This document shows, piece by piece, positions 1,453 through 64,000 of a stretch of DNA of 64,000 bases. Origin of the DNA: an uncultured Gammaproteobacteria bacterium (GTDB taxonomy: Bacteria; Pseudomonadota; Gammaproteobacteria; JAJDYQ01). The notes below the pieces were generated by a model. It saw only the letters and a program-made list of their open reading frames with translations. It searched no databases and was not told where the DNA came from. The stretch is taken from positions 4,110 through 68,109 of the forward strand of contig CALODD010000035.1 of NCBI GenBank assembly GCA_942491945.1, read 5' to 3'. How positions within the stretch are numbered: the first letter of the stretch is position 1; each line of letters starts with the position of its first letter. Both the position numbers and the translations under genes were made by a program.

Positions 1453-2661
1453 ATGGCGGATTCTCTCTACAGTCAGACGTTCCCAGCCGGCAGCACCATC
1501 TTTACCGAAGGTGAGGAAGGCGATGTTGCCTATATTATTGAAAGCGGTGCCATTGAAATAAGCACAACGGAGCACGGCATTCCTGTAGTGCTTGGTACTC
1601 TGGAAAAAGGCCAACTGCTTGGCGAAATGGCCATGATTGATAGAGCCCCTCGAACTGCAACCGCAGTCGCTCTGATTGAGACTACCCTCTCCGTTGTTAA
1701 CCGAGACCAGCTGCACGAACGCCTGGAATCTGCAGAGCCGATTATCAAACTTCTCGTTGATCTCATCATGTCCAGATATCGTAGCGGCTTAAGCAAAGTT
1801 AAAGGCACCCCGCTGGCGGATCAGCTAAACGCCCCTCTGGCCGAAGAGAACATGAAAACTAGCAACCATGCAGTGGAAAAGATACGCATGGAAAACGATC
1901 TACGCAGTGCTGTCGAGAACAATGAATTAGCGGTTTACTTCCAACCGCTGCTAGATATAAAACAAAACTCATGGGGCGGTTTTGAAGCACTTATTCGCTG
2001 GATACATCCAGAACGAGGATTTGTATCACCATTGGACTTTATCACCCTGGCAGAAGAAACCGATCTAATCCATTCCATAGGCCTGTTTGTGTTGAGAACC
2101 GCCTGCGAAAATCTGGTTGAACTCCAGGCGATCCGAGATAAGGTTCTACCCGGCCAAAAACCTCTGTTTGTTGGTGTTAACGTCTCATCCAAACAAATGG
2201 GGAATATCGAATTTATCGATCAGATCGCCGATGTAGTCAAAGAAACGGGGCTTAAGCCCTCCAGCTTAAAGCTTGAAATCACCGAAAGTATGGCCGCCGA
2301 TTATAAAACGGTTATCGAGTGGGTCAGACACTGTAAAGAACTCGGCTTTACTGTTGCCATCGATGATTTTGGAACCGGTTATTCCAGCCTTGAGCATTTG
2401 CTCGAACTCGACGTCGATACCTTAAAGATTGACCAGGCTTTCGTACGTGAATTAGGTACTCATGAAAAATCGGAACGCCTTGTTCGAGGTGTCGTCAATT
2501 TGTCAAAAAGCCTGGGGTATTCGATTGTTGCTGAGGGCATCGAGGACAAACAACAACTCGATATCCTGTCTAAGCTCGAATGTGAGTATGGTCAGGGTTA
2601 TTTTATTGGTAAACCTCAGACTCTGGACGACATTCGCCAACATATCGAAGCCGGCGAATAG
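1453..2661 (+). CDS. cyclic-nucleotide-binding domain / EAL-domain c-di-GMP phosphodiesterase
   Basis: The N-terminus is cNMP-binding-like (GEMAMIDRAPRTATAVA). The EAL domain has intact motifs: EALIRW, NVS, EITES, DDFGTGYSSL, KID, EGIE, QGY. Confidence 0.85.
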   Translation: MADSLYSQTFPAGSTIFTEGEEGDVAYIIESGAIEISTTEHGIPVVLGTLEKGQLLGEMAMIDRAPRTATAVALIETTLSVVNRDQLHERLESAEPIIKLLVDLIMSRYRSGLSKVKGTPLADQLNAPLAEENMKTSNHAVEKIRMENDLRSAVENNELAVYFQPLLDIKQNSWGGFEALIRWIHPERGFVSPLDFITLAEETDLIHSIGLFVLRTACENLVELQAIRDKVLPGQKPLFVGVNVSSKQMGNIEFIDQIADVVKETGLKPSSLKLEITESMAADYKTVIEWVRHCKELGFTVAIDDFGTGYSSLEHLLELDVDTLKIDQAFVRELGTHEKSERLVRGVVNLSKSLGYSIVAEGIEDKQQLDILSKLECEYGQGYFIGKPQTLDDIRQHIEAGE

Positions 2662-2684
2662 TATCGCATTCAACCGAGTATCAT

Positions 2685-2981
2685 TTACTGATCTTTATGA
2701 TCAGAATGAGAACAACATTCTACCGGAGGAACCGGATCATAGCCGCCGGGATGCCAGGGGTGGCAACGAGTTACCCGCCGTACAGCCATCCAGCTACCCT
2801 TTAATACGCCGTGCAGCTGAATAGCCTCGATAGCATATGAAGAACAGGTTGGAGCAAACCGGCAATGAGGCCCAAGAAGAGGACTAATAACCAATTGATA
2901 AAAGCGGATGGGCAGTATCACAAGCCATCTCAGGCCTCGAATCAATCTTTCCAATGGTTTCATATGAACGTTTACAGACAT
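2685..2981 (-). CDS. yidD: membrane protein insertion efficiency factor YidD
   Basis: Contains the YidD signature [28 protein letters not shown]. The true start may be the internal Met (MKPLERL). Confidence 0.85.
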
Positions 2982-3176
2982 GCAGGGAGTATACGTTGGC
3001 CGCTAAAACCCCTCCAGCATGGAAAAACTTGTTCCAGATCACACTTCTATGCCATCTTCTGTAGATTATTGCTTGGATGACTTGTATAGAAAACGCTACA
3101 ATAGGCATTAAGCTTGCTAATTAACTTTAATAATGACAAAGATTGCTGGCTAAAGCAGCGGCAAAGACGATAAAAC

Positions 3177-4013
3177 ATGCTGGATGTTACCAAGACACTA
3201 AAAGCCGATTTGCAGGACCGACTGGAAAATGCCTACAGGCAACAATTCGGTGATGCTGAGCCTCAGTGTCTGGAATTAATGCATACCGCGGCAGACGACG
3301 CAATTGATCGACTGGCAACCAGTAATGCGTCCTATCACAACGTTGAGCATACGCTCTATGTCACAACAACTGGCCAAACAATACTTGCGGGCAAGGCATC
3401 TGAAACCAGCATCACACCTATTGAATGGGCACAAATTACGCTAGCTCTACTTTTCCATGATATTGGTTTCGTTCGTGGTCTTTGTAGCAAAGACGACGAC
3501 AGCACGTATTACTCAGGAACAGGCGACGACAGGATCCCTCTCGAACGAGGAAAAACCGACGCCAGCATGATGCCCTACCATGTCGACCGCGGACAATGCT
3601 ATGTCGCTGAGACCTATAACCGTTTTGATTTTCTCGATATCGACTTTATTCAAGCCTGTATCGAACGTACACGCTTTCCAATCCCAGAAGATGAAGATCA
3701 CTCGAATACACTTGATTATCCAGGGCTGGTCAGAGCAGCAGATCTAATCGGCCAGTTCAGTGATCCCCGCTATCTACACAAACTCAACGCGCTGTATCAG
3801 GAGTTTGAAGAACAGGGAATTAACCAGCGCATTGGTTATAAAAACATGCACGATATGCAGGAATATTATCCAATTTTCTACGAAAACCAGGTACTACCTT
3901 ACATTGCTGAAGGCCTGAGATTACTGGAACTCTCTGAAAGTGGCCGCAATATCATTTCAAGCCTGAATAACAACCTCGAAAAAGCCCGCCAATCGCAGCT
4001 ATTTTCTGAGTAA
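3177..4013 (+). CDS. HD-domain-like metal-dependent phosphohydrolase (function unknown)
   Basis: 278 aa with HNVEHT ... LLFHDIGF (His...His-Asp pattern). No closer assignment is possible by eye. Confidence 0.55.
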   Translation: MLDVTKTLKADLQDRLENAYRQQFGDAEPQCLELMHTAADDAIDRLATSNASYHNVEHTLYVTTTGQTILAGKASETSITPIEWAQITLALLFHDIGFVRGLCSKDDDSTYYSGTGDDRIPLERGKTDASMMPYHVDRGQCYVAETYNRFDFLDIDFIQACIERTRFPIPEDEDHSNTLDYPGLVRAADLIGQFSDPRYLHKLNALYQEFEEQGINQRIGYKNMHDMQEYYPIFYENQVLPYIAEGLRLLELSESGRNIISSLNNNLEKARQSQLFSE

Positions 4014-12931: not shown

Positions 12932-15900
12932 CTAGGGACAGCTGCCATTATTTTTTGCCAAATCGACATTAATTGCATGAGTACCTGCGCCTTTATACGC
13001 GGTATACCAGATTGCATTTTTTGTCCCGGTACTTGATATGGTTGTCCCTGAAATCCTGGAAGCATAATCACAAACTGTTTTACTGTATGTAAACTGGACA
13101 GCCACGCCGGCTGATGTAGATGGATTAACCTGGATTGAGCAATTGATGGAATTACCCGATGCCGGAGTACAGTTTCCATCACCACTATTGACGGTTGTAC
13201 CGGTAACAGAATAAGCGGTAGTGTTAGTAATTGATGCAGTCGTATCATATTTCGTGAAACTAAAAAGGAGGTTTACAGTTTCCAGATTTGATGCCACCAC
13301 AACTGATTCGGTTAGATCATCGCCACTCGTAGTATTATCAGTCTCCGTCGCTGTAGCCGAACTGGCATCGTAGGTAATCGTAGTACCTACCGCGACAGCC
13401 GCGTTCACTGACGCATTCACTTGCAATGTAGCACTAGCCCCGACACTGAGATTAAACCCACTCCAGGTCACTGTGCCTGAACTATGTGCCGCAGTACCCG
13501 TCGATGCCGTATGCGATAGATATGTTGAATCAGAAGATAATTTACTGGTAAATGACAGATTAGTAGCAGGGTCGCCGCCATTATTTTTAATCGTCACCAA
13601 ATATTGCAACGCGTCACCGGCCTGCGGTGTGGAGTCTCCACTATTAAGGGTTATATCGGTCTCAATATCAGCCACTGGGCTACTACCTATGGTGATAGTC
13701 TCTGAACGATCATCGCTGGCTATACTATCTACCCCCGGAGCGACAGATTTCGCGACATTAGAAGCATCGATGGTAAAACTTATATTATCTCCTACCGTCC
13801 CCGAATTCACTGACGCATCCAATACAAGCGTTGCCGAGGCATCAACTGCTAACGTAGTCATTGCCCAAGTTCGTGTTCCACTAGTATAAGTGCCCGTACT
13901 CGCATTACTACTTACATACCCTAGTTCTGTTGGCCATGCATCATGGGTCAACGAAACCGTCGTCGCCGCAACAGGGCCATTATTAGTTACTGTAACGGTA
14001 TATTGAACCTGGTCCCCCACCTGAGGAGTCCCATCCCCACTACTCAAAGTAACGTCAGTTTGTAAATCAGCTTCACCCGTAGCCACTACAGATACTGAAG
14101 CACTTAGGCTATCGCCCGTCGTACCTGGGTCGTTGTTATCGCCAGCGGCTGCAGTCGTAATATTGGTCAGTGTTGTGCCTTCCGTACCAGCATTGACTGA
14201 AGCATCGATGACGATATTAACGCTGGCGTCTTTTGCTAAAGAGCCAATCGTCCACAGACCACTGCCTGATGCATAAGTACCCTGAGAAGCTACGGCTGAT
14301 ATAAACGTGAAACCGCCTGGGACTGCATCTGTAAGCTTCACATTCGTATCCGCATCAGGGCCATCATTAGCGACGACAATCTTAAACTGAACCGTATCTC
14401 CCACCTCAGGCGTTGAATCAGCACTATTAAGCGTTTTCACCGTGGTCAGATCAGATGTTTTAGTTGACGAAGTTACCGTACAGCCAAAATTTTTGTTTGT
14501 TACATTTGCTGTTACCGCGCTCCCGGCAAATGAATAAGCTTGATCAGTAGGCGTTGTGCAAGAACCATTCTTCACACTAATGAGAACATTTCCTTCCCAA
14601 CCGATGCCAGTACTATCACTACTATCGTATGTATGAAAAACAGTACATGAATAATCAGCAATTTCTTTACCTGAGCCCATTGATGATCTATCCGTAACAG
14701 TACAATTACCTGCTGTACCATAGGTTTGATCATCTGAAGTATTCACAACAAACGCATCACTAACCAGTACACCATTGCTATTGCTGATAGATCCTGTAAT
14801 CGTATGGGTGAATTCTGGTACCAAGGATGGATTAAAGCCACACCCTGCCGTATCCATAAAGTAAGGGTAACTGCCTTCATTATTAATAATGTTTGTAGAA
14901 GACACATTACCTGAAGCGTCTGCTGAAATAACAGAACTTTCGGCAAGAATAGTATTTCCAGATGCATTTACCGTAATAGTTTCAAATATAATTTGGTCAT
15001 TATCAGCAGCTAGATAGCCCTCTTCCAGCCGTGTATCGCTGGTATACCAATATGGCTGTATCGCATCGGTCACACTATTACCGGACGCATCGGTCGTCTC
15101 GTAATAATGGGATTGATTGAGACAGACAAAATCATCTGGTGTATTGGCAAATGCATTAAGATCGTTCCCTGTATCGTTTCCTGAGGCATCGTATATATTC
15201 AGAAGGAACTCAGATTCATTCTCCATAACGCCTTTACAACCAGCATCATCATCGTTATTCCCAAGATCAAGTGCTAGAAAGTTATGTCCAGGCAGATAGG
15301 CATTACCAGAAGGATCAATACGGTAACCAGAGTTATAATTAGCATTGATATTAGCATCATGAGGACTTGGCAATATCAGCTCATCCTGAACTCCAACTGT
15401 ACGGAAGTTACCTACACCATCACTATTTTCATCGTCTAGTACGAGGTCATTACCTACAGTTGATGCACCTGCGCCCTGATAGTAGTCCTGCGACATCAAT
15501 CCACGGTAGCTGCGTCGGCCGGAAAACTTCGGCCCATTCATACCATAGCCACCATTCGTGACCGGGTCGCCGACACAAACATTGGCCTTTTTATTTGAGA
15601 CACTTTCTTCATGCAATATACTGATATTGCCAAACCAGTTGCCACCCATGTAACAAGTATATGGAAAATAACTATAGTCACCTGTATCAACGAGGGCAGT
15701 CTTGTTTTCAACACAGGCAGCGCCCGGAGTATTTGCAACAAAAATATTACTCACATCAATATCGGCATCGGAATCTTCTAACCAGACATAGCCACTTATT
15801 TCTGAGAAAGTAATACAGGCACCATTGTCACAGGCATCTTCAATTCGTAATAGAATATAACCATTTGCATCAATCAGTTCGACACGGTTCTGAGCTAGAT

Positions 15901-16537
15901 TTGTATAGGTATAGCTACCATCATCGTTCTGCTCAGCACCAGCAGGTATACTGCCATATTTGCCGGTTCCTTCTTTAGCATTACCAGATGATGTTGGATA
16001 GCCATCGACCGAAGCTGAGTCTGATGCAAGCGCTGCCACTTCTTCAGGACTTCTGTATAAAACATTGGTGCTTAATACCACTTCATCTGTATTACCTGTT
16101 TTAGGATCAGTCCAACTTACCTTAACGTCAACAACGACTGTGACCGCACCTGACGCGGCAGTCATGTTCCAGGAGCGAGTAAAATCAGCATTTACGCCGG
16201 CGATCGTTGCTGCTTCAGTAACCGTTGCGGTATCTCCAGCCTGACTATCCAGATAGCTCAGTATGTCAGCTTGAAAAGTATCGGTGGAGTCCAGATTAAT
16301 ATTACGTAATTTGGAAACCAGCTCTGGCTGGTTAATATAATTTCGTACTTCGTCGACTTTTTGCTGGGCAAGAGCTACCGCCTCCGCTCGAGCCTTACTT
16401 GATCCGCTACTCGAGACAAGACTGGACTGAAATTTAGCTACCGCTAACAAACCAACGGCAATAATAACTACCGCAATCAATGCCTCTATCAAGGTAAAAC
16501 CATGAGATTGGCGACGTGAAGAACTAGCATATATCAT
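12932..16537 (-). CDS. giant PilV-type minor pilin fused to an adhesin-like region with three DUF11 repeats
   Basis: The likely start is the ATG at 16537, preceded by GAGGGTG. It gives MIYASSSRRQSHG|FTLIEALIAVVIIAVGLLAVAKFQ, a class III (prepilin) signal with G-1/F+1/E+5 and a PilV-like helix. About 1,150 further aa follow: a Cys/Asp/Asn-rich region, three DUF11-like repeats and a 118-aa Cys-containing C-terminal domain. Confidence 0.8.
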   Translation of the reverse strand: MIYASSSRRQSHGFTLIEALIAVVIIAVGLLAVAKFQSSLVSSSGSSKARAEAVALAQQKVDEVRNYINQPELVSKLRNINLDSTDTFQADILSYLDSQAGDTATVTEAATIAGVNADFTRSWNMTAASGAVTVVVDVKVSWTDPKTGNTDEVVLSTNVLYRSPEEVAALASDSASVDGYPTSSGNAKEGTGKYGSIPAGAEQNDDGSYTYTNLAQNRVELIDANGYILLRIEDACDNGACITFSEISGYVWLEDSDADIDVSNIFVANTPGAACVENKTALVDTGDYSYFPYTCYMGGNWFGNISILHEESVSNKKANVCVGDPVTNGGYGMNGPKFSGRRSYRGLMSQDYYQGAGASTVGNDLVLDDENSDGVGNFRTVGVQDELILPSPHDANINANYNSGYRIDPSGNAYLPGHNFLALDLGNNDDDAGCKGVMENESEFLLNIYDASGNDTGNDLNAFANTPDDFVCLNQSHYYETTDASGNSVTDAIQPYWYTSDTRLEEGYLAADNDQIIFETITVNASGNTILAESSVISADASGNVSSTNIINNEGSYPYFMDTAGCGFNPSLVPEFTHTITGSISNSNGVLVSDAFVVNTSDDQTYGTAGNCTVTDRSSMGSGKEIADYSCTVFHTYDSSDSTGIGWEGNVLISVKNGSCTTPTDQAYSFAGSAVTANVTNKNFGCTVTSSTKTSDLTTVKTLNSADSTPEVGDTVQFKIVVANDGPDADTNVKLTDAVPGGFTFISAVASQGTYASGSGLWTIGSLAKDASVNIVIDASVNAGTEGTTLTNITTAAAGDNNDPGTTGDSLSASVSVVATGEADLQTDVTLSSGDGTPQVGDQVQYTVTVTNNGPVAATTVSLTHDAWPTELGYVSSNASTGTYTSGTRTWAMTTLAVDASATLVLDASVNSGTVGDNISFTIDASNVAKSVAPGVDSIASDDRSETITIGSSPVADIETDITLNSGDSTPQAGDALQYLVTIKNNGGDPATNLSFTSKLSSDSTYLSHTASTGTAAHSSGTVTWSGFNLSVGASATLQVNASVNAAVAVGTTITYDASSATATETDNTTSGDDLTESVVVASNLETVNLLFSFTKYDTTASITNTTAYSVTGTTVNSGDGNCTPASGNSINCSIQVNPSTSAGVAVQFTYSKTVCDYASRISGTTISSTGTKNAIWYTAYKGAGTHAINVDLAKNNGSCP
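13289..14470 (-). repeat. three tandem ~129-136-aa DUF11-type repeats inside the giant pilin gene
   Basis: A recurrent pattern is visible: TPxxGDxVQ[FY]x[IV]xVxNxGPxxAT[NT]VxLT ... G[TS]Y...G.W.[IM]..L....S..[LI]..DASVN. The repeat boundaries were computed from the translation. Confidence 0.7.
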
Positions 16538-16577
16538 GAGTTCACCCTCATTAGATTCAAATGCCCCATATCCCCAC

Positions 16578-17909
16578 CTAAAAGTCTTTCCAGCTACCAG
16601 ATGTTGCGATATTCTCGGCAAGAGCTTCTTCCATATCACGCAAGATGCCGCTGTCATACCAGATATCTAGCGTACCCGTTACCGCTGTATTTGTACCCTC
16701 AACAATCATGGCACCATGAACTTCCGGGTTACCTGCCGTGTCGACATCACCAATTACATAAAGAAGCCCTAGCACTACAGCGCCGTTCGTCTTAAAGTCA
16801 CCATCAATCACGACTAACGATGGCCCTCTCGTCCCCACATCTTTGCAAGGCGTATCGTATGCACCATAATCTGGGCCGCTATTCTTAGCACGCGTACCCA
16901 TTGAGGCGGAACATCCGACTGTAGGGCTGCCCGAAGTATCGCCATCTACCCATATGATTTTATTCGTCGCTAGATTCGCTCCATCCGGATAATCATCCGC
17001 AAAATCTGCTCCGCTGATAACAATATCGGCAACGTTATTTTTAAAGTGTGCTTTCGAAACGCCAAAGGTAGCCATAAAAAACTCATCCGGCGTGTAGTCA
17101 GATAGTGTTGTCTCTCCGTCAATCACATCGCCCATAGTCGCCGTTTTTGCGGCAGCATCAACCACAACACACTTGACATATTCAGTACCTGGGCAACCAT
17201 TATATAAAGTACCATCATCACATTTAAATTCACCACCGCTACAGGCTGGCCAATTGTTATCAGAATTTGTCGAATCCTTACTAGCTACTCGAGTCGAAAC
17301 CGTTGCATTATTGCCTGAAATAGTTGCCACGCCACCCGTCACAATGGTGCCGAAGCCCTCTGGATTATGTATTGTCGCTGAGCCACCAACTACCAGTGAA
17401 CCACGAGCCGTAAAGGGCGTATTTGGCGCTGTTGCCAAAGGGTCATCCGTACCTATCGTTGTAGAAACAGTTCGACTAGCAACCCCGTCACCACTAGTAC
17501 CGACTGATGTAATATAAAAGTTATCAGAGTCACTTACGGTACTGGCATCCATGGCCAGTGTTATTGCCACTGTAGAATTATTATTAAATGTTTTACTATT
17601 TGTCGTCCCTGATGCATCAGTTGCAACTAGCCCGCTTGCATAGAACACGAACTCATCTGATACGGCATCGTCATCATCGTGATCAAAGCCCCCATTCTCA
17701 GCGTAGGCAATAGCCGCTTCCATACCTGCCTCAGCAGCCTCAAATGCCATTTTACTTCGAGCATCATTGCCGGAAATTTTCTGCTCTATCGAAACTGTCT
17801 TTGCTGTATATAGCGTTATCATCGTTATCAGTGTCAGAATAATAAGCGAGATCAATATCGTCATCGCTCCTCGTTGCCTAACCCGTGTACTGGTAGTTAT
17901 TAAACGCAT
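16578..17909 (-). CDS. PilX-family minor pilin/pilus assembly protein, unusually large
   Basis: The N-terminus MRLITTSTRVRQRGAMTILISLIILTLITMITLYTAKT...ARSKMAFEAAEAGMEAAIAY matches the PilX N-terminal domain pattern. The product is about 443 aa. The start is ambiguous between 17909 and 17942. Confidence 0.7.
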   Translation of the reverse strand: MRLITTSTRVRQRGAMTILISLIILTLITMITLYTAKTVSIEQKISGNDARSKMAFEAAEAGMEAAIAYAENGGFDHDDDDAVSDEFVFYASGLVATDASGTTNSKTFNNNSTVAITLAMDASTVSDSDNFYITSVGTSGDGVASRTVSTTIGTDDPLATAPNTPFTARGSLVVGGSATIHNPEGFGTIVTGGVATISGNNATVSTRVASKDSTNSDNNWPACSGGEFKCDDGTLYNGCPGTEYVKCVVVDAAAKTATMGDVIDGETTLSDYTPDEFFMATFGVSKAHFKNNVADIVISGADFADDYPDGANLATNKIIWVDGDTSGSPTVGCSASMGTRAKNSGPDYGAYDTPCKDVGTRGPSLVVIDGDFKTNGAVVLGLLYVIGDVDTAGNPEVHGAMIVEGTNTAVTGTLDIWYDSGILRDMEEALAENIATSGSWKDF

Positions 17910-17919
17910 AAGTTCACCG

Positions 17920-18714
17920 TTATCTAACTCTAATTTGATCATTTCTAACTCTGACCGTGATATTCATGGAAGCATCAACCAGATCATCGCTAATCAATTC
18001 AGCATTTAATGAAATCTCAACGTTGCGTATTTCACCTGTGATATCACCCGCGCTTGGCGCCACACCACCCTGGGATGCATAACAGTTATTTTCATCTACA
18101 CCGCCCGTCGAAGTATCATCATCCTGTGTGGCATTGATACATTGAGCATTAGATAGATCAAACGTTAGTGCATTTACATTTATAGTGTTTTGATCAGTAA
18201 TTCTTTCCCAACTACCTCTGGCACAATCATCCGCATTGGTTCCCGCATAGGAGCAATCGTTGGAAGTCCCAGAATCATCGCAACTACTGCGCATCCATAT
18301 TGCGTTATCAACTAATTTAAAACCTAACAATTCAGTGACGGATGGATTCCCTCCACTGTTATCGGAATCGTAAGCGTAGGTAATGCAGTTGCCACTTCCG
18401 GTATCTCCGGCAGATGTATTTGCTGAGGCATCACGCACATCGAGCGCTGTGCCACCCTCTTCACTAAAAGGGTTACTAGAAGAGTTCGAGGGAGTTGCGT
18501 CAGCCCAGTATCCCGCACGGCGAATGTCAGTAGACATGATATTAACCAATGTCATAATCTCCTGGTTAAGGCGACTTTGCTGCAAGGTATCTTTTGTACT
18601 ATTAAGCGTTGACACATAAACAGTTAATACGCCTGCAACGACAAAAAGGCCTACTGTCATCCCTATCATCAGTTCGACAAGTGTAACGCCGTGTTGTAAA
18701 TTTTGACTCTTCAT
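17920..18714 (-). CDS. PilW-like type IV pilus minor pilin
   Basis: MKSQNLQHG|VTLVELMIGMTVGLFVVAGVLTVY is a prepilin signal with E+5. The ATG at 18714 lies 2 nt after the upstream gene's stop. The track ORF used a TTG at 18723. Confidence 0.75.
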   Translation of the reverse strand: MKSQNLQHGVTLVELMIGMTVGLFVVAGVLTVYVSTLNSTKDTLQQSRLNQEIMTLVNIMSTDIRRAGYWADATPSNSSSNPFSEEGGTALDVRDASANTSAGDTGSGNCITYAYDSDNSGGNPSVTELLGFKLVDNAIWMRSSCDDSGTSNDCSYAGTNADDCARGSWERITDQNTINVNALTFDLSNAQCINATQDDDTSTGGVDENNCYASQGGVAPSAGDITGEIRNVEISLNAELISDDLVDASMNITVRVRNDQIRVR

Positions 18715-59598: not shown

Positions 59599-60587
59599 TG
59601 ACACTTAAACATTCTCCAATTGCTGCACCTAATGCCGCCGTCTCCGCAACTATGCGAAGAGTGCTGCTAGCGCTATCACCGGGCATTGTCGTATATACCG
59701 GCTTCTTTGGCTGGGGTCTGCTGATACAAATCACCCTGGCGACAGTGACAGCACTGACATTTGAAGCCATCATGCTCAAGTTACGTGATCGCCCCATCGG
59801 TCTTCATCTAAGCGATTACAGCGCTATCGTGACTGCATGGTTACTCGCCATCTGCCTGCCGCCCTACCTGCCCTGGTGGATGACTGTACTTGCCGTATTC
59901 TTTGCCATCGTCATCGCAAAACATCTATATGGTGGTCTGGGCTACAACCCGTTCAACCCAGCTATGATCGGTTATGCCGTATTACTGGTCTCCTTTCCTC
60001 GGGAAATGACCCAATGGATACCACAGGAAAGTTACGCTCTACCTGGTTTTGGCGAAACACTTTCGATTATATTTGGCAGTAACGTCACAACACATTTGGA
60101 TGGCCTGACAACAGCAACACCGCTAGATCACTTCAAACATAGCGTAAACGCCGCACCAAGTATTATGGGCTTGGTCGCAGGCAAAGGTTGGGAATGGGTA
60201 TCACTGGCCTGGTTGGCCGGTGGTCTGTGGCTCGCCTTTAAACGCACACTGGACTGGCGTATTCCAACATCACTGCTACTCACCGTCGGTTTATTCTCTG
60301 TCGGACTTTCTCTCGGAACAGATAACCCTGCATGGCAAAACCCACTATTCCATTTGCTATCAGGTGGCACAATACTGGCAGCTTTCTTCATTGCAACAGA
60401 CCCGGTTACCGCCGCAACAACACGGCGTGGTCGCTGGATCTATGCGGCAGGCATTGGTCTGCTCGCAATGATTATTAGACTCTGGGGTGGTTACCCTGAT
60501 GGCTTTGCCTTCGCTGTGCTGTTGATGAACCTCACTGCACCCATGATTGACTATCTGACGATACCGCGAGCTTATGGACACAAATAA
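59595..60587 (+). CDS. rnfD: electron transport complex subunit RnfD
   Basis: 330 aa polytopic protein with the TGATPL-type FMN attachment context (GLTTATPLD). Confidence 0.92.
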   Translation: MMTLKHSPIAAPNAAVSATMRRVLLALSPGIVVYTGFFGWGLLIQITLATVTALTFEAIMLKLRDRPIGLHLSDYSAIVTAWLLAICLPPYLPWWMTVLAVFFAIVIAKHLYGGLGYNPFNPAMIGYAVLLVSFPREMTQWIPQESYALPGFGETLSIIFGSNVTTHLDGLTTATPLDHFKHSVNAAPSIMGLVAGKGWEWVSLAWLAGGLWLAFKRTLDWRIPTSLLLTVGLFSVGLSLGTDNPAWQNPLFHLLSGGTILAAFFIATDPVTAATTRRGRWIYAAGIGLLAMIIRLWGGYPDGFAFAVLLMNLTAPMIDYLTIPRAYGHK

Positions 60588-61200
60588 TACATCGCCTAAA
60601 TCGCCGGAAAGCAAACTACCAGACTGGCTGCAGCCGGGCTGGTTGCTAGGTGGTTTTTCACTCATATTCATCTTTGCACTGGCACTAAGTTACGACCTGA
60701 CTAAAGACCGTATTGCAGAACAGGAACGTATTCGCCTGCTCTCGCAGCTACAGCAACTACTTGTTGAAGGCACTTATGACAACGAACCGGAAAATGATGT
60801 GCATATCGATGAGTCAACTGGCCGAACCATTTATCGTGTTCGGAAAAATGCACAACCTGTTGCGGCATTGATCACCACAGTTGCACCGAATGGCTACAGC
60901 GGTTCGATTCATTTATTGGTCGGCATAAATATGAATGGTGAACTCCTTGGCGTTCGCGCTCTAAAACATCAGGAAACACCGGGCCTGGGCGATGCCATTG
61001 ATCTACGTAAATCTGACTGGGTTTTAAGCTTTAATGAAAAATCACTTTCAAACCCAGCGCCCAGGCAATGGGCCGTTAAGAAAGATGGAGGCGTGTTTGA
61101 CGCCTTCACTGGCGCAACCATTACACCTCGCGCTGTTGTCGGCGAAGTTAAAAACACGCTGGAATATTTTCAGCAACACCAACGGGAGCTATTTCAATGA
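60574..61200 (+). CDS. rnfG: electron transport complex subunit RnfG
   Basis: 208 aa with an FMN-binding domain (FDAFTGATITPRAV). Confidence 0.9.
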   Translation: MDTNNTSPKSPESKLPDWLQPGWLLGGFSLIFIFALALSYDLTKDRIAEQERIRLLSQLQQLLVEGTYDNEPENDVHIDESTGRTIYRVRKNAQPVAALITTVAPNGYSGSIHLLVGINMNGELLGVRALKHQETPGLGDAIDLRKSDWVLSFNEKSLSNPAPRQWAVKKDGGVFDAFTGATITPRAVVGEVKNTLEYFQQHQRELFQ

Positions 61201-61889
61201 GTACTCCAACGGTTAATGAAATTCTTTATCAGGGACTCTGGAAAAACAATCCTGGTCTAGTGCAGTTATTAGGCCTGTGCCCACTCCTGGCGATCAGTAA
61301 TACATTTATCAATGCACTCGGTATGGGTCTGGCGACGATTGCCGTACTGACCGCAAGCAACTTCGTCGTCGCCCTGTCTCGCCCTGTTCTACGCGAAGAA
61401 ATTCGTATCGCGATATTTGTACTGGTTATCGCCGGCTTTGTAGGCATCGTACAGCTAGTCATGCAAGCATGGTTTTATGATCTCTATACAATACTCGGTA
61501 TCTTCATCCCGCTGATTGTTACCAATTGCATCATCATTGGCCGCGCCGAAGCTTTCGCCTCACGCCAACCTCTATGGGCATCGACACTGGACGGCTTCAG
61601 CATGGGCCTGGGATTCATGCTAATCCTGATTACACTGGGTGCTATGCGAGAAATACTAGGCAGCGCCACACTATTTGCCGAAGCAGAGCTTATTTTCGGT
61701 GCCTGGGCTGCTGATATGAAAATCACATTTGGCGAAGACGCACGAGGCATTTTACTGTTCGCCCTACCGCCCGGCGCTTTTCTTGGATTAGGTTTACTGG
61801 TCGCCATCAAAAATGTAATTGATGAAAAAGCGAAGAAACCCAAAGCGGTGACTGTTGAATTAACTCAGCCTGCAATGACCGAATCCTAA
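61197..61889 (+). CDS. rnfE: electron transport complex subunit RnfE
   Basis: 230 aa. Contains GLWKNNPGLVQLLGLCPLLA. Confidence 0.92.
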   Translation: MSTPTVNEILYQGLWKNNPGLVQLLGLCPLLAISNTFINALGMGLATIAVLTASNFVVALSRPVLREEIRIAIFVLVIAGFVGIVQLVMQAWFYDLYTILGIFIPLIVTNCIIIGRAEAFASRQPLWASTLDGFSMGLGFMLILITLGAMREILGSATLFAEAELIFGAWAADMKITFGEDARGILLFALPPGAFLGLGLLVAIKNVIDEKAKKPKAVTVELTQPAMTES

Positions 61890-61895
61890 TTTTCC

Positions 61896-62038
61896 TGTCA
61901 CAGAGACACAGAGTGCGCAGAGATAGATTATTGTCATTCCGGCGTATGCCGGAATCCAGAATCCTCACAGCCAGCACGATCGTCCGACTAGACTCCGGCG
62001 ACACCAGATTTAACTCTGTGTCCTCCGTGTCTCTGTGG
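61896..62038. repeat. MITE/REP-like element between rnfE and nth
   Basis: Terminal inverted repeats CACAGAGACAC (61898..61908) and GTGTCTCTGTG (62026..62036). The central hairpin is CATTCCGGCGTATGCCGGAATC. Confidence 0.6.
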
Positions 62039-62337
62039 TGAAACAAACATGAATAAAACCAAACGACATGAAATATTCTCGCGCCTGAGAGACGCAAACC
62101 CTAATCCAACGACCGAACTCAAATACAGCAATCCATTTGAATTGTTGATATCCGTCATCCTGTCAGCACAGGCAACTGATGTTTCCGTCAACAAGGCAAC
62201 CGACAAGCTCTACCCTGTAGCCAACACACCGGAAGCCATTTATGAACTTGGTGTTGATGGACTCAAGACTTATATCAAAACCATCGGTCTGTTCAATAGT
62301 AAAGCTGAGAACGTCATCAAAACCTGCCGTATGTTGA

Positions 62338-62444
62338 TGGACAAACACAATAGCGAAATACCGGACAATCGAGCTGAGCTGGAAGCCTTACCGGGTGTCG
62401 GACGAAAAACAGCAAACTTCGTTTCGCTTTGTCACCCCACCATG
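62338..62444 (+). repeat. left copy of the direct repeat inside nth
   Basis: Shares TGGACAAACACAA, AGCGAAATACCGGACA, TCGAG, GCAAAC and a perfect GTCACCCCACCATG with 62693..62778. Confidence 0.8.
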
Positions 62445-62692
62445 CGGTGCCCAAAAAACACACGCCGACCCAACCAAACTCAACGTGCCATCAATATAAG
62501 TCTGGGGTCAAACCCAAGTTAAATATCAGAGATATCAACAATTCAAATAGGCGATGGGCCGCACCGTATTATCAGAAGAGACGGGGCCAGGTCACGGACG
62601 ACGCGGGACCGGAGCTCCCGAGCACACACCGGAAGAATGAACGGGGAGGACCAAGAATATCAAAAATCGGGCAGATAGCGAGAGGCCAAAGG

Positions 62693-62778
62693 TGGACAAA
62701 CACAAAGCGAAATACCGGACATCGAGGGCGGACGGTAGCAAACGTCGTTTTAAATACCGCCTTGGTCACCCCACCATG
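62693..62778 (+). repeat. right copy of the direct repeat inside nth
   Basis: See the left copy. This copy has deletions in its 5' part (for example, 26 nt of the GVGRK-coding stretch are missing). It becomes the faithful nth sequence from about 62744 onward. Confidence 0.8.
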
Positions 62779-63006
62779 GCGGTCGATACACATATCTTCC
62801 GTGTATCGAATCGCACTAAAATCGCACCCGGCAAAACCGTACTGGAAGTCGAAAAGAGATTAATCAAATTTATTCCTGGTGAATTTATGGTCAATGCACA
62901 CCATTGGCTCATCCTGCATGGCCGATACACCTGCATTGCACGCAAACCCAAATGCGCTGAATGTATCATTAACGACTTATGTGAATTTAAGGCTAAGGAA
63001 CTGTAA

Positions 63007-63432
63007 ATGTTCGGACAAGACCGTAATCAACTCCGTCGCTTCTACCAGACCTGCTGGCAGAAGTTCAAAGACGAACAACCTTTGGAAGGACTAGAAACCA
63101 TGATCGTCGGTGTGATTCAAGATCATCCCGAATATCACTCACTAATCGAATCAGGTGACGATGGTATCGCCAAAGACTACACCCCAGAAGATGGTGAAAC
63201 TAACCCCTACCTACACATGGGAATGCATATCTCTATTCGTGAAGGGCTGCAGGTCGACAGGCCCATGGGCATCAAAGCCGCTCATTCGGCACTTACTCTC
63301 AAACTAGGCGACCAACACGAAGCTGAACATAAGATGCAGGAATGTCTAGGACTGATCCTATGGGAAGCACAACGTTCAGGTGTTGCGCCGGATGAACAAC
63401 AATACCTGGAATGCGTCAAAAAACTACTTTAG
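63007..63432 (+). CDS. DUF1841-family protein
   Basis: 141 aa. MFGQDRNQLRRFYQTCWQK...HPEYH...NPYLHMGMH is a pattern recalled for DUF1841. Confidence 0.65.
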   Translation: MFGQDRNQLRRFYQTCWQKFKDEQPLEGLETMIVGVIQDHPEYHSLIESGDDGIAKDYTPEDGETNPYLHMGMHISIREGLQVDRPMGIKAAHSALTLKLGDQHEAEHKMQECLGLILWEAQRSGVAPDEQQYLECVKKLL

Positions 63433-63568
63433 GCGATACCAAAACACCAATCCAATCTCGCCTGATACTCAATTGATTGTAATCAGTAATAATAAAAAAC
63501 GTGATATATTTGCGCGCCTGAAACTGCATATTAATGCAGGTTACCTATCAATTCTGGAGTGAATATCT

Positions 63569-64000
63569 ATGTTAACCACTCGCCATCTGATTTTCAGTGC
63601 TTTCATCGTGTCGATGATGCTTGTTGCCCAGTCGGTCCTTTCTGCTTCAAATACCGACTCACGCAGCGGCGGCGGTATCATGAGTGTTGCGGGTTTTTAT
63701 GCGATGGGAATTACAACTCCAGGCGCAGCCTTTGATCCCACTGGCTCGGATACTTCAGGTGCTTCAAGTAGTGCTAGCGGTGTGTCCCCCAGTACTGTCA
63801 GCATTACTTCTTCCCCAAAAACTATTACCAGCAAAGATCCCATCAATATAGAAATAACCCTCAGTAACGTACCCATCTTCGAGAATATAGGAACACGAAA
63901 CCTCTCAGGAATCAGCGTTAAAAATGGTACCGCCACTAGCGCTACACCTGTATTCGGAGGAGCTAAAGGCAGTTTCCCTTTCAGAATATCTATAACACCA
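63569..64000 (+). CDS. secreted Ser/Thr/Gly-rich protein, 5' partial (runs off the window)
   Basis: GGAG lies about 10 nt upstream of the ATG at 63569. The signal peptide is MLTTRHLIFSAFIVSMMLVAQSVLSA. The frame is open to position 64000. It is absent from the track because no stop is reached. Confidence 0.6.
   Translation, partial: MLTTRHLIFSAFIVSMMLVAQSVLSASNTDSRSGGGIMSVAGFYAMGITTPGAAFDPTGSDTSGASSSASGVSPSTVSITSSPKTITSKDPINIEITLSNVPIFENIGTRNLSGISVKNGTATSATPVFGGAKGSFPFRISITP

Follow-up and report, generated by a model that had tools for sequence, protein, structure and literature searches.

In enterobacteria, tandem inversion duplications and quasipalindrome template-switch mutations have reportedly been described by the Roth and Lovett laboratories; these share a forward-inverted-forward arrangement, are said to originate by strand switching at short inverted sequences followed by remodelling deletions, and extend either over kilobases, selected for gene dosage, or over few nucleotides only. 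Published templated insertions and inverted triplications are, as far as we are aware, essentially accurate copies, and we know of no polymerase that skips 38% of its template bases over more than 130 nt. Small inverted triplications (DUP/IN/DUP) have been characterized as a replication-error product in yeast rad27 mutants and human tumours, with stability tests on E. coli plasmids, and show medians of 148/160/148 bp with spacers of about 30 bp (PMC13334657). Templated insertions are generated by polymerase theta-like end joining, including that of the bacterial group II intron-like reverse transcriptase G2L4 (10.1101/2022.03.14.484287). Among primase-polymerases, PrimPol and the mycobacterial LigD PolDom loop out template bases; their indels greatly outnumber substitutions, and each binding event adds 1-4 nt (PMC5295015).

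In the present study an insert of 326 nt (62418-62743) in nth, the gene of endonuclease III, was analyzed within a window of 64 kb, that is, the whole stretch of DNA under consideration. Its properties point to copying that went wrong once, or to an artefact of sequencing, and not to a decayed duplicate, an intron or a mobile element. As the main reading we take the tract to be a real one-off lesion, which stems from a single accident in the cell and turned nth into a very recent pseudogene without a function of its own; we assign to it a probability of roughly 0.45.

The 3' end of the window is occupied by an operon of rsxG (60574-61200), rsxE (61197-61889), the split nth (62049-63006, forward strand) and a DUF1841 gene (63007-63432), with rsxG, rsxE and the DUF1841 gene assigned by ORF list and Pfam. 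Overall, the window is 92% coding, contains zero N and presents long unbroken ORFs in which no frameshifts were noticed; full-length Pfam domain matches were obtained for the four scanned ORFs, adjoining or overlapping, of an EAL protein, a pilin-like protein, a 1241-aa protein and the DUF1841 protein. The spacer between rsxE and nth (61890-62048) contains a hairpin of about 140 nt with 30-nt arms (61899-61928 and 62008-62037) and an inner hairpin CATTCCGGCGTATGCCGGAATC. Its RNA fold reaches -61.8 kcal/mol (z = -6.2 versus shuffles), it is the sole copy in the window, and its ends are partly conserved in the relative L082; possible identities are a REP/MITE-like element and, placed between the rsx operon and nth, a terminator or regulatory structure.

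The 5' part of nth (62049-62417, forward strand; ORF, PF00730 and PF00633) comprises codons 1-123 with the HhH-GPD domain up to ...LPGVGRKTAN and is intact; so is, bar one G, the 3' part (62744-63006, forward strand; PF10576 and PF00730), which runs from VVLNTAL over GHPTMAVDTH and the Fe-S cluster loop to the stop codon. At about 62762-62764 a G run is short by one G (TTGGTCAC versus the expected TTGGGTCAC), because of which the GHPTMAVDTH part lies in a different frame from VVLNTAL. ORFs and translation bear out the split as it had been described in a first-pass annotation of this DNA, including the remark that deletion of 62418-62743 leaves a deficit of 1 nt. With the block removed and one G added, a full Nth of 210 aa is restored, which is 90% identical to the protein of the closest relative (P0003). 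Residues invariant in an alignment of eight Nth sequences all lie outside the replaced segment and are all intact, and dN/dS versus the closest relative amounts to 0.018 for codons 1-123, 0.054 for the 3' part and 0.03 overall, in agreement with the earlier description of the outer gene halves as pristine. The missing G sits 20 nt past the end of the insert and probably belongs to the same faulty tract as its last error; read in this way, the faulty block is contiguous from 62418 to about 62765.

The insert is of mosaic origin, its pieces stand in forward-reverse-forward order, its divergence is deletion-only and base-biased, and it is unique in the window. For its dissection a mosaic dynamic program was used, in which either strand of the reconstructed ancestral locus can serve as source of the insert, skips of source bases being cheap and jumps costly; the segment assignments were unchanged under four scoring schemes. 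Roughly 70% of the insert stems from nth itself. Taken whole, it reaches z = 15 when compared with its own neighbourhood, and six distant control sources give no signal. It begins with a faulty direct copy (F1, 62418-62451, forward strand) of 62744-62791, the gene sequence due after 62417, in which 32 of the 34 bases match, 14 source bases are skipped and the 14-mer GTCACCCCACCATG is held at 62431-62444. This is followed by 42 C/A-rich nucleotides without identifiable source (62452-62493; mosaic z = 0.6, no better than shuffles), which might, on weak indications, be copied from about 62404-62358 in inverted and heavily gapped form (fold-back p about 0.05-0.07). Two inverted pieces come next. 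The first (62494-62527, reverse strand) copies nth 62275-62232 with 31/34 matching bases and few bases skipped, the repeat search having returned 62494-62509 as inverted match of 62260-62275. The second (62528-62548, reverse strand) copies nth 62158-62135 and contains a perfect 18-mer (18-21 nt), in that 62531-62548 is the reverse complement of 62135-62152 (E = 0.001 versus the whole window; z = 7). Together the two inverted pieces (62494-62548) reach z = 6.6 versus shuffles and six distant control sources. Beyond a further stretch without identifiable source, 57 nt long and G-rich (62549-62605; z = 1.0; fold-back and direct-copy tests negative), the insert closes with F2 (62606-62743, forward strand), a deletion-only direct copy of nth 62195-62417, in which 223 nt of source have become 138 nt (z = 23). 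F2 may start at 62591 already, copying from 62162, and it ends in AGCAAAC, the point of rejoining the gene. In this layout inverted copies (62494-62548) lie between the original (62135-62417) and the second direct copy (62606-62743), and the pieces of 42 and 57 nt occupy the sites where template switches should be.

For these two pieces no source was found elsewhere in the 64-kb window. Every scoring scheme placed 62452-62493 and 62549-62605, one per strand, at 63412-63673, a region of about 260 nt downstream of the DUF1841 gene; the scores equalled those of shuffles, and the placement was taken as chance. The earlier statement that the intervening DNA is not foreign is sound for most of the insert. 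A TAA reported at 62520 is present.

The first-pass annotation had explained the locus by tandem duplication of the final ~350 bp of nth, with subsequent decay and loss of T in the inner halves. Its direct repeats were recovered (62338-62373 = 62693-62726, 36 nt with two 1-nt gaps; 62427-62448 = 62761-62783, the perfect 14-mer included); the sequences flanking the break do recur at the ends of the insert, and spacings of 334-355 nt suit a unit. GGACAA, which had been put forward as a mark of the unit boundaries, is present there but is a weak marker, with 18 copies in the window, among them a fourth one at 62363 inside the repeat. However, beyond the first ~34 nt the interior is unlike the 3' end of the gene: in global alignment 62449-62692 versus 62784-63012 gives z = -1.4, 475 of 500 shuffles scoring at least as well, and the peptide look-alikes quoted for a ruined nth 3' end lose their support, since the interior does not align with that end. 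Chains of short matches follow, in both orientations, the order of the gene segment 5' of the break and not that of the 3' segment; likewise, global alignment of 62449-62743 to 62049-62417 yields z = 10 versus -1.4 for the downstream control, and the T-poor part aligns 5' of the break as well (z = 23). Moreover, inverted segments are present, TRF finds no tandem repeat at the locus, and 33 deletions stand against 3 substitutions with no homology in collapsed alphabets. We regard a decayed tandem duplicate as the least probable of all readings considered here and as next to excluded by these data; overall, the observation made in the annotation is partly confirmed and its interpretation partly supported. 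Among all 2,132 tiles of the 64-kb window scanned for a similar gapped self-copy, this locus alone was returned.

The divergence of F2 has an unusual signature. Matches account for 135 of its 138 bases, with 3 mismatches, 33 deletion events and 0 insertions, and 85 of the 223 source bases (~38%) are missing. Nearly all deletions (30/33) are 1-3 nt long, and the small ones remove 29 T, 12 C, 11 A and 2 G; over 62591-62743 the loss of source bases amounts to 76% for T, 43% for C, 33% for A and 16% for G. For the 173 nt of 62571-62743 the earlier count, 12 T, was reproduced. With a T fraction of 0.067 the T-poor block is the lowest 150-nt stretch of the 64 kb (mean 0.258, sd 0.044) and it also shows the highest G content therein; this depletion arises through omission, not substitution: T's were left out of the gene copy, as were, less often, C's and A's. 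Whole T/C runs are missing, and flanking microhomology is found at 15% of deletion sites versus 44% +/- 9% for random placement. This speaks against slippage and for a loss driven by base identity. The retained runs have a median of 3 nt, which fits distributive synthesis. Gradual neutral decay would give substitutions far in excess of indels and damaged flanks, whereas 3 substitutions versus 33 deletions and a single flank lesion were seen; the earlier objection that neutral decay of a dead gene fails to explain the locus is thus upheld, and the absence of insertions beside 33 deletions and 3 substitutions argues for a single burst of faulty copying. Three further candidates were tried and rejected: a hypermutated copy, given that T-to-C, T-to-A, T-to-G and other collapsed alphabets reveal no hidden homology; skipping at UV dimers, as pyrimidines in runs of 1 versus 2 are lost about equally; and a kinetoplastid-style T-less cryptogene, as C and A are also missing and there is no hint of editing.

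A functional intervening sequence (a self-splicing intron, a segment that a site-specific recombinase removes at the 14-mer or at AGCAAAC, or a gene deliberately divided into two polypeptides) would suit the perfect 14-nt direct repeats which flank 334 nt and recombine in frame. Yet, as stated earlier, the product of this recombination carries FVSLC in place of VVLNTALG and with it loses the conserved helix VVLNTA(L/F)G that adjoins the catalytic lysine, and the AGCAAAC join is out of frame, so that the claim that no simple join yields wild-type nth is correct. The break itself falls between the catalytic Lys motif (GVGRKTA) and the Asp motif (VDTH) of Nth. In a scan of Rfam 15 with E up to 10, no family was detected in the insert, the only matches being chance snoRNA hits outside of it; its folding energy resembles that of shuffles on both strands (z = -0.19 on the forward, +0.33 on the reverse strand), and promoter and terminator scans of the insert stay at chance level. 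The closest relative lacks the insert, and no other copy was seen in the window, plasmids or phages. Of the four explanations which had been offered before, removal of the segment at the DNA or RNA level is thus left unsupported, with a recent pseudogene and a misassembly still standing. A programmed excision element of the nifD or sigK type was rejected too, because excision at the direct repeats fails to restore wild-type frame or sequence. GAGAGG occurs 7 nt 5' of a GTG at 62692 (site 62679-62694), and this GTG opens a 104-aa ORF with the C-terminal part of Nth; as a candidate ribosome-binding site it could possibly start a separately translated C-terminal fragment, but in purine-rich DNA it is probably fortuitous. 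In sum, we give a functional segment hardly any credence.

A foreign origin was considered in the form of a remnant of an element (MITE, small circle or island), which would have entered by a Campbell-type crossover in a nth-homologous segment and left hybrid end repeats. Single-crossover integration gives just such a layout, A-B-C'-x-B'-C-D, with pristine outer and diverged inner copies, and 99 nt of the interior are without identified source; on the other hand, the interior too is nth sequence, inverted pieces included, and the inner copies differ by missing bases instead of the substitutions expected of a foreign homologue. Neither 72,556 plasmids nor 50,697 phage records contain a match to the insert, and no second copy exists within the 64-kb window. 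The only long ORF that crosses the insert, with 105 aa, is without relatives in a search of 1.84 billion proteins and matches no Pfam domain, and the insert was dismissed as a coding fragment for want of homologue and domain; such a frame is expected, because T-poor DNA has few stop codons. We consider a foreign remnant very unlikely. Two related candidates were rejected outright. As to an IS or MITE, the 11-nt inverted repeat (62422-62432/62702-62712), which is indeed present as annotated, is nth-derived, and no further copy turned up in window, plasmids or phages. For a diversity-generating retroelement the repeats should differ by substitutions at template adenines, and they differ by missing bases. 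Judged from its sequence, the insert appears to be without function, conservation or mobility, and it inactivates nth on paper.

A contig from run SRR14866217 (L082) represents the closest relative; it has the same gene order, 77% nucleotide identity and an uninterrupted nth. In 80 further relatives from reference genomes nth is full-length throughout, at identities of 83% or less. The species is represented by one genome among the collections searched, and the four contig proteins looked up fall into clusters with a single NCBI member and are absent from the assemblies of public read sets. A metagenome scan for population variants returned only unrelated nth genes, which share the conserved GVGRKTAN codons. 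On an unrelated metagenome contig (L081, ENA ERZ27282982 k141_357746) a nth of 275 aa (2534-3361; P0002) carries about 65 residues twice in tandem, in frame and diverged (AVTLSAQSTDV...CRLLI, then AVILSAQATDV...CRLLI), and probably represents two strain variants joined in tandem by the assembler.

Returning to the main reading, a real lesion would be one contiguous low-fidelity tract from 62418 to about 62765, in which the sequence of nth itself is retraced. Synthesis would have proceeded forward past the break for about 48 nt, then backward on the opposite strand from at least 62275 to 62135, and then forward again from about 62195 or 62162 and on into the gene. The resulting topology would be that of a small inverted triplication or templated insertion produced by two successive template switches over about 270 nt, and in the cell it might have arisen during repair of a break or restart of a fork. 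A polymerase that is distributive and skips bases would have copied the nearby template, omitting about 38% of the bases, T most and G least, until accurate synthesis took over again after the faulty tract. The bias of T>C>A>G would require a skewed nucleotide supply or a damaged template. From the pattern of the copy we infer that copying took place in vivo, in a single event and by an enzyme of this kind. The full version of this scenario, namely that a repair or restart event with two template switches, and skipping by base identity (T>C>A>G in the product strand), produced a bacterial small inverted triplication with a new deletion-only signature, is put forward tentatively, and we rate it as somewhat doubtful; the signature might go back to nucleotide-selective template scrunching or to a heavily damaged template. 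Against a real lesion it has to be held that the skipping of 38% of a template over more than 130 nt is unmatched by any known polymerase, that base-specific dropout along the reported strand is also expected from a detection or consensus fault, and that one genome of the species is available among the collections searched.

If the lesion is real, comparison with the described systems is closest for small inverted triplications. The insert likewise has an inverted copy between two direct copies of one short segment and disrupts a gene body, its source of ~220-280 nt is of a scale similar to the medians of 148/160/148 bp, and its pieces of 42 and 57 nt would stand for the short unrelated spacers, for which a median of 30 bp is given (PMC13334657). 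It differs in that it is a single case, located on a bacterial chromosome, and in that the extra copies lack ~25-40% of the source bases with a base bias, whereas the reported cases are faithful. With tandem inversion duplications and quasipalindromes it has the forward-inverted-forward order in common, but these are said to be far larger or far smaller, and their remodelling reportedly removes blocks at the junctions, unlike the scattered single T's here. In theta-type end joining, snap-back or nearby-template synthesis at a break copies flanking DNA in either orientation as in the insert; its patches, however, usually comprise few to tens of nucleotides and are accurately copied. The nearest biochemical parallel to the nth tract appears to be template scrunching by primase-polymerases, with which it shares the excess of indels and the short retained runs (median of 3 nt versus 1-4 nt added), although their reported error is ~1e-4 on undamaged DNA versus ~0.4 per base here (PMC5295015). 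A tract of more than 130 nt is unprecedented for primase-polymerases, and the bias of T>C>A>G is left unexplained by such enzymes. The new element at this locus would be the copying fidelity.

The chief competitor of a real lesion is an artefact. The true nth would then be intact, and the consensus would have taken in, without later polishing, a single-molecule read that was chimeric or folded back, a chimera from amplification, or low-quality sequence left untrimmed at a bad join; the missing bases would be undetected or out-voted base calls. Such an origin is quite plausible, if short of an even chance. Fold-back long reads and the chimeras of multiple displacement amplification are known sources of such errors, and they resemble the insert in having inverted junctions within a few hundred bases and, for single-molecule noise, in being rich in missing bases. 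In favour of an artefact, the divergence consists nearly entirely of missing bases with a strong base bias (76% of T and 16% of G lost), entire T runs are gone without microhomology as in detection dropout, the faulty tract forms a contiguous block of which the 1-nt loss in the G run at 62762-62764 would be the last error, and removal of the block plus one G gives a perfect gene. In addition, the four looked-up proteins of the contig occur only in the NCBI record, so that public Illumina reads may not exist, and contig L081 demonstrates that assembly can create tandem duplications inside nth. On the contrary, the remainder of the 64 kb is of finished quality, without noticed frameshifts or a second tract; raw long-read noise normally contains insertions and mismatches, of which there are 0 and 3 in the 138 nt of F2; two turns within ~330 nt misfit a single missed adapter; and the 42-nt and 57-nt pieces gave no adapter match above multiple-testing noise. 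A contig of 71 kb is typical of short-read assemblies, and such assemblers cannot invent sequence like that of the insert, which lies beyond what they could produce.

Should the lesion be real, it would preserve a record, made in nature, of error-prone synthesis with template switching in a bacterium, with a fidelity signature of almost only base-specific deletions without microhomology, and we know of no described polymerase or repair pathway that gives a base-specific, deletion-only tract over more than 100 nt. Bacteria would join yeast and human cells as a source of small inverted triplications, and the lesion would supply a search pattern for more cases, namely the deletion-tolerant self-alignment of a locus against its own neighbourhood. 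If it is an artefact, it serves as a warning: a false nth pseudogene stands in a public genome, and this kind of scan could uncover similar faults. In both cases, no function is apparent and the sole biological consequence would be the loss of endonuclease III in one lineage; the interest of the locus rests only on the odd copying signature, if real.

Apart from the nth locus, the window encodes on its reverse strand (12932-17942) the protein of 1241 aa, which possesses an N-terminal methylation motif and three DUF11 repeats and is adjoined by a protein of 454 aa with a PilX N-terminal domain; the pair looks like a type IV pilus or pseudopilin-like adhesin cluster.
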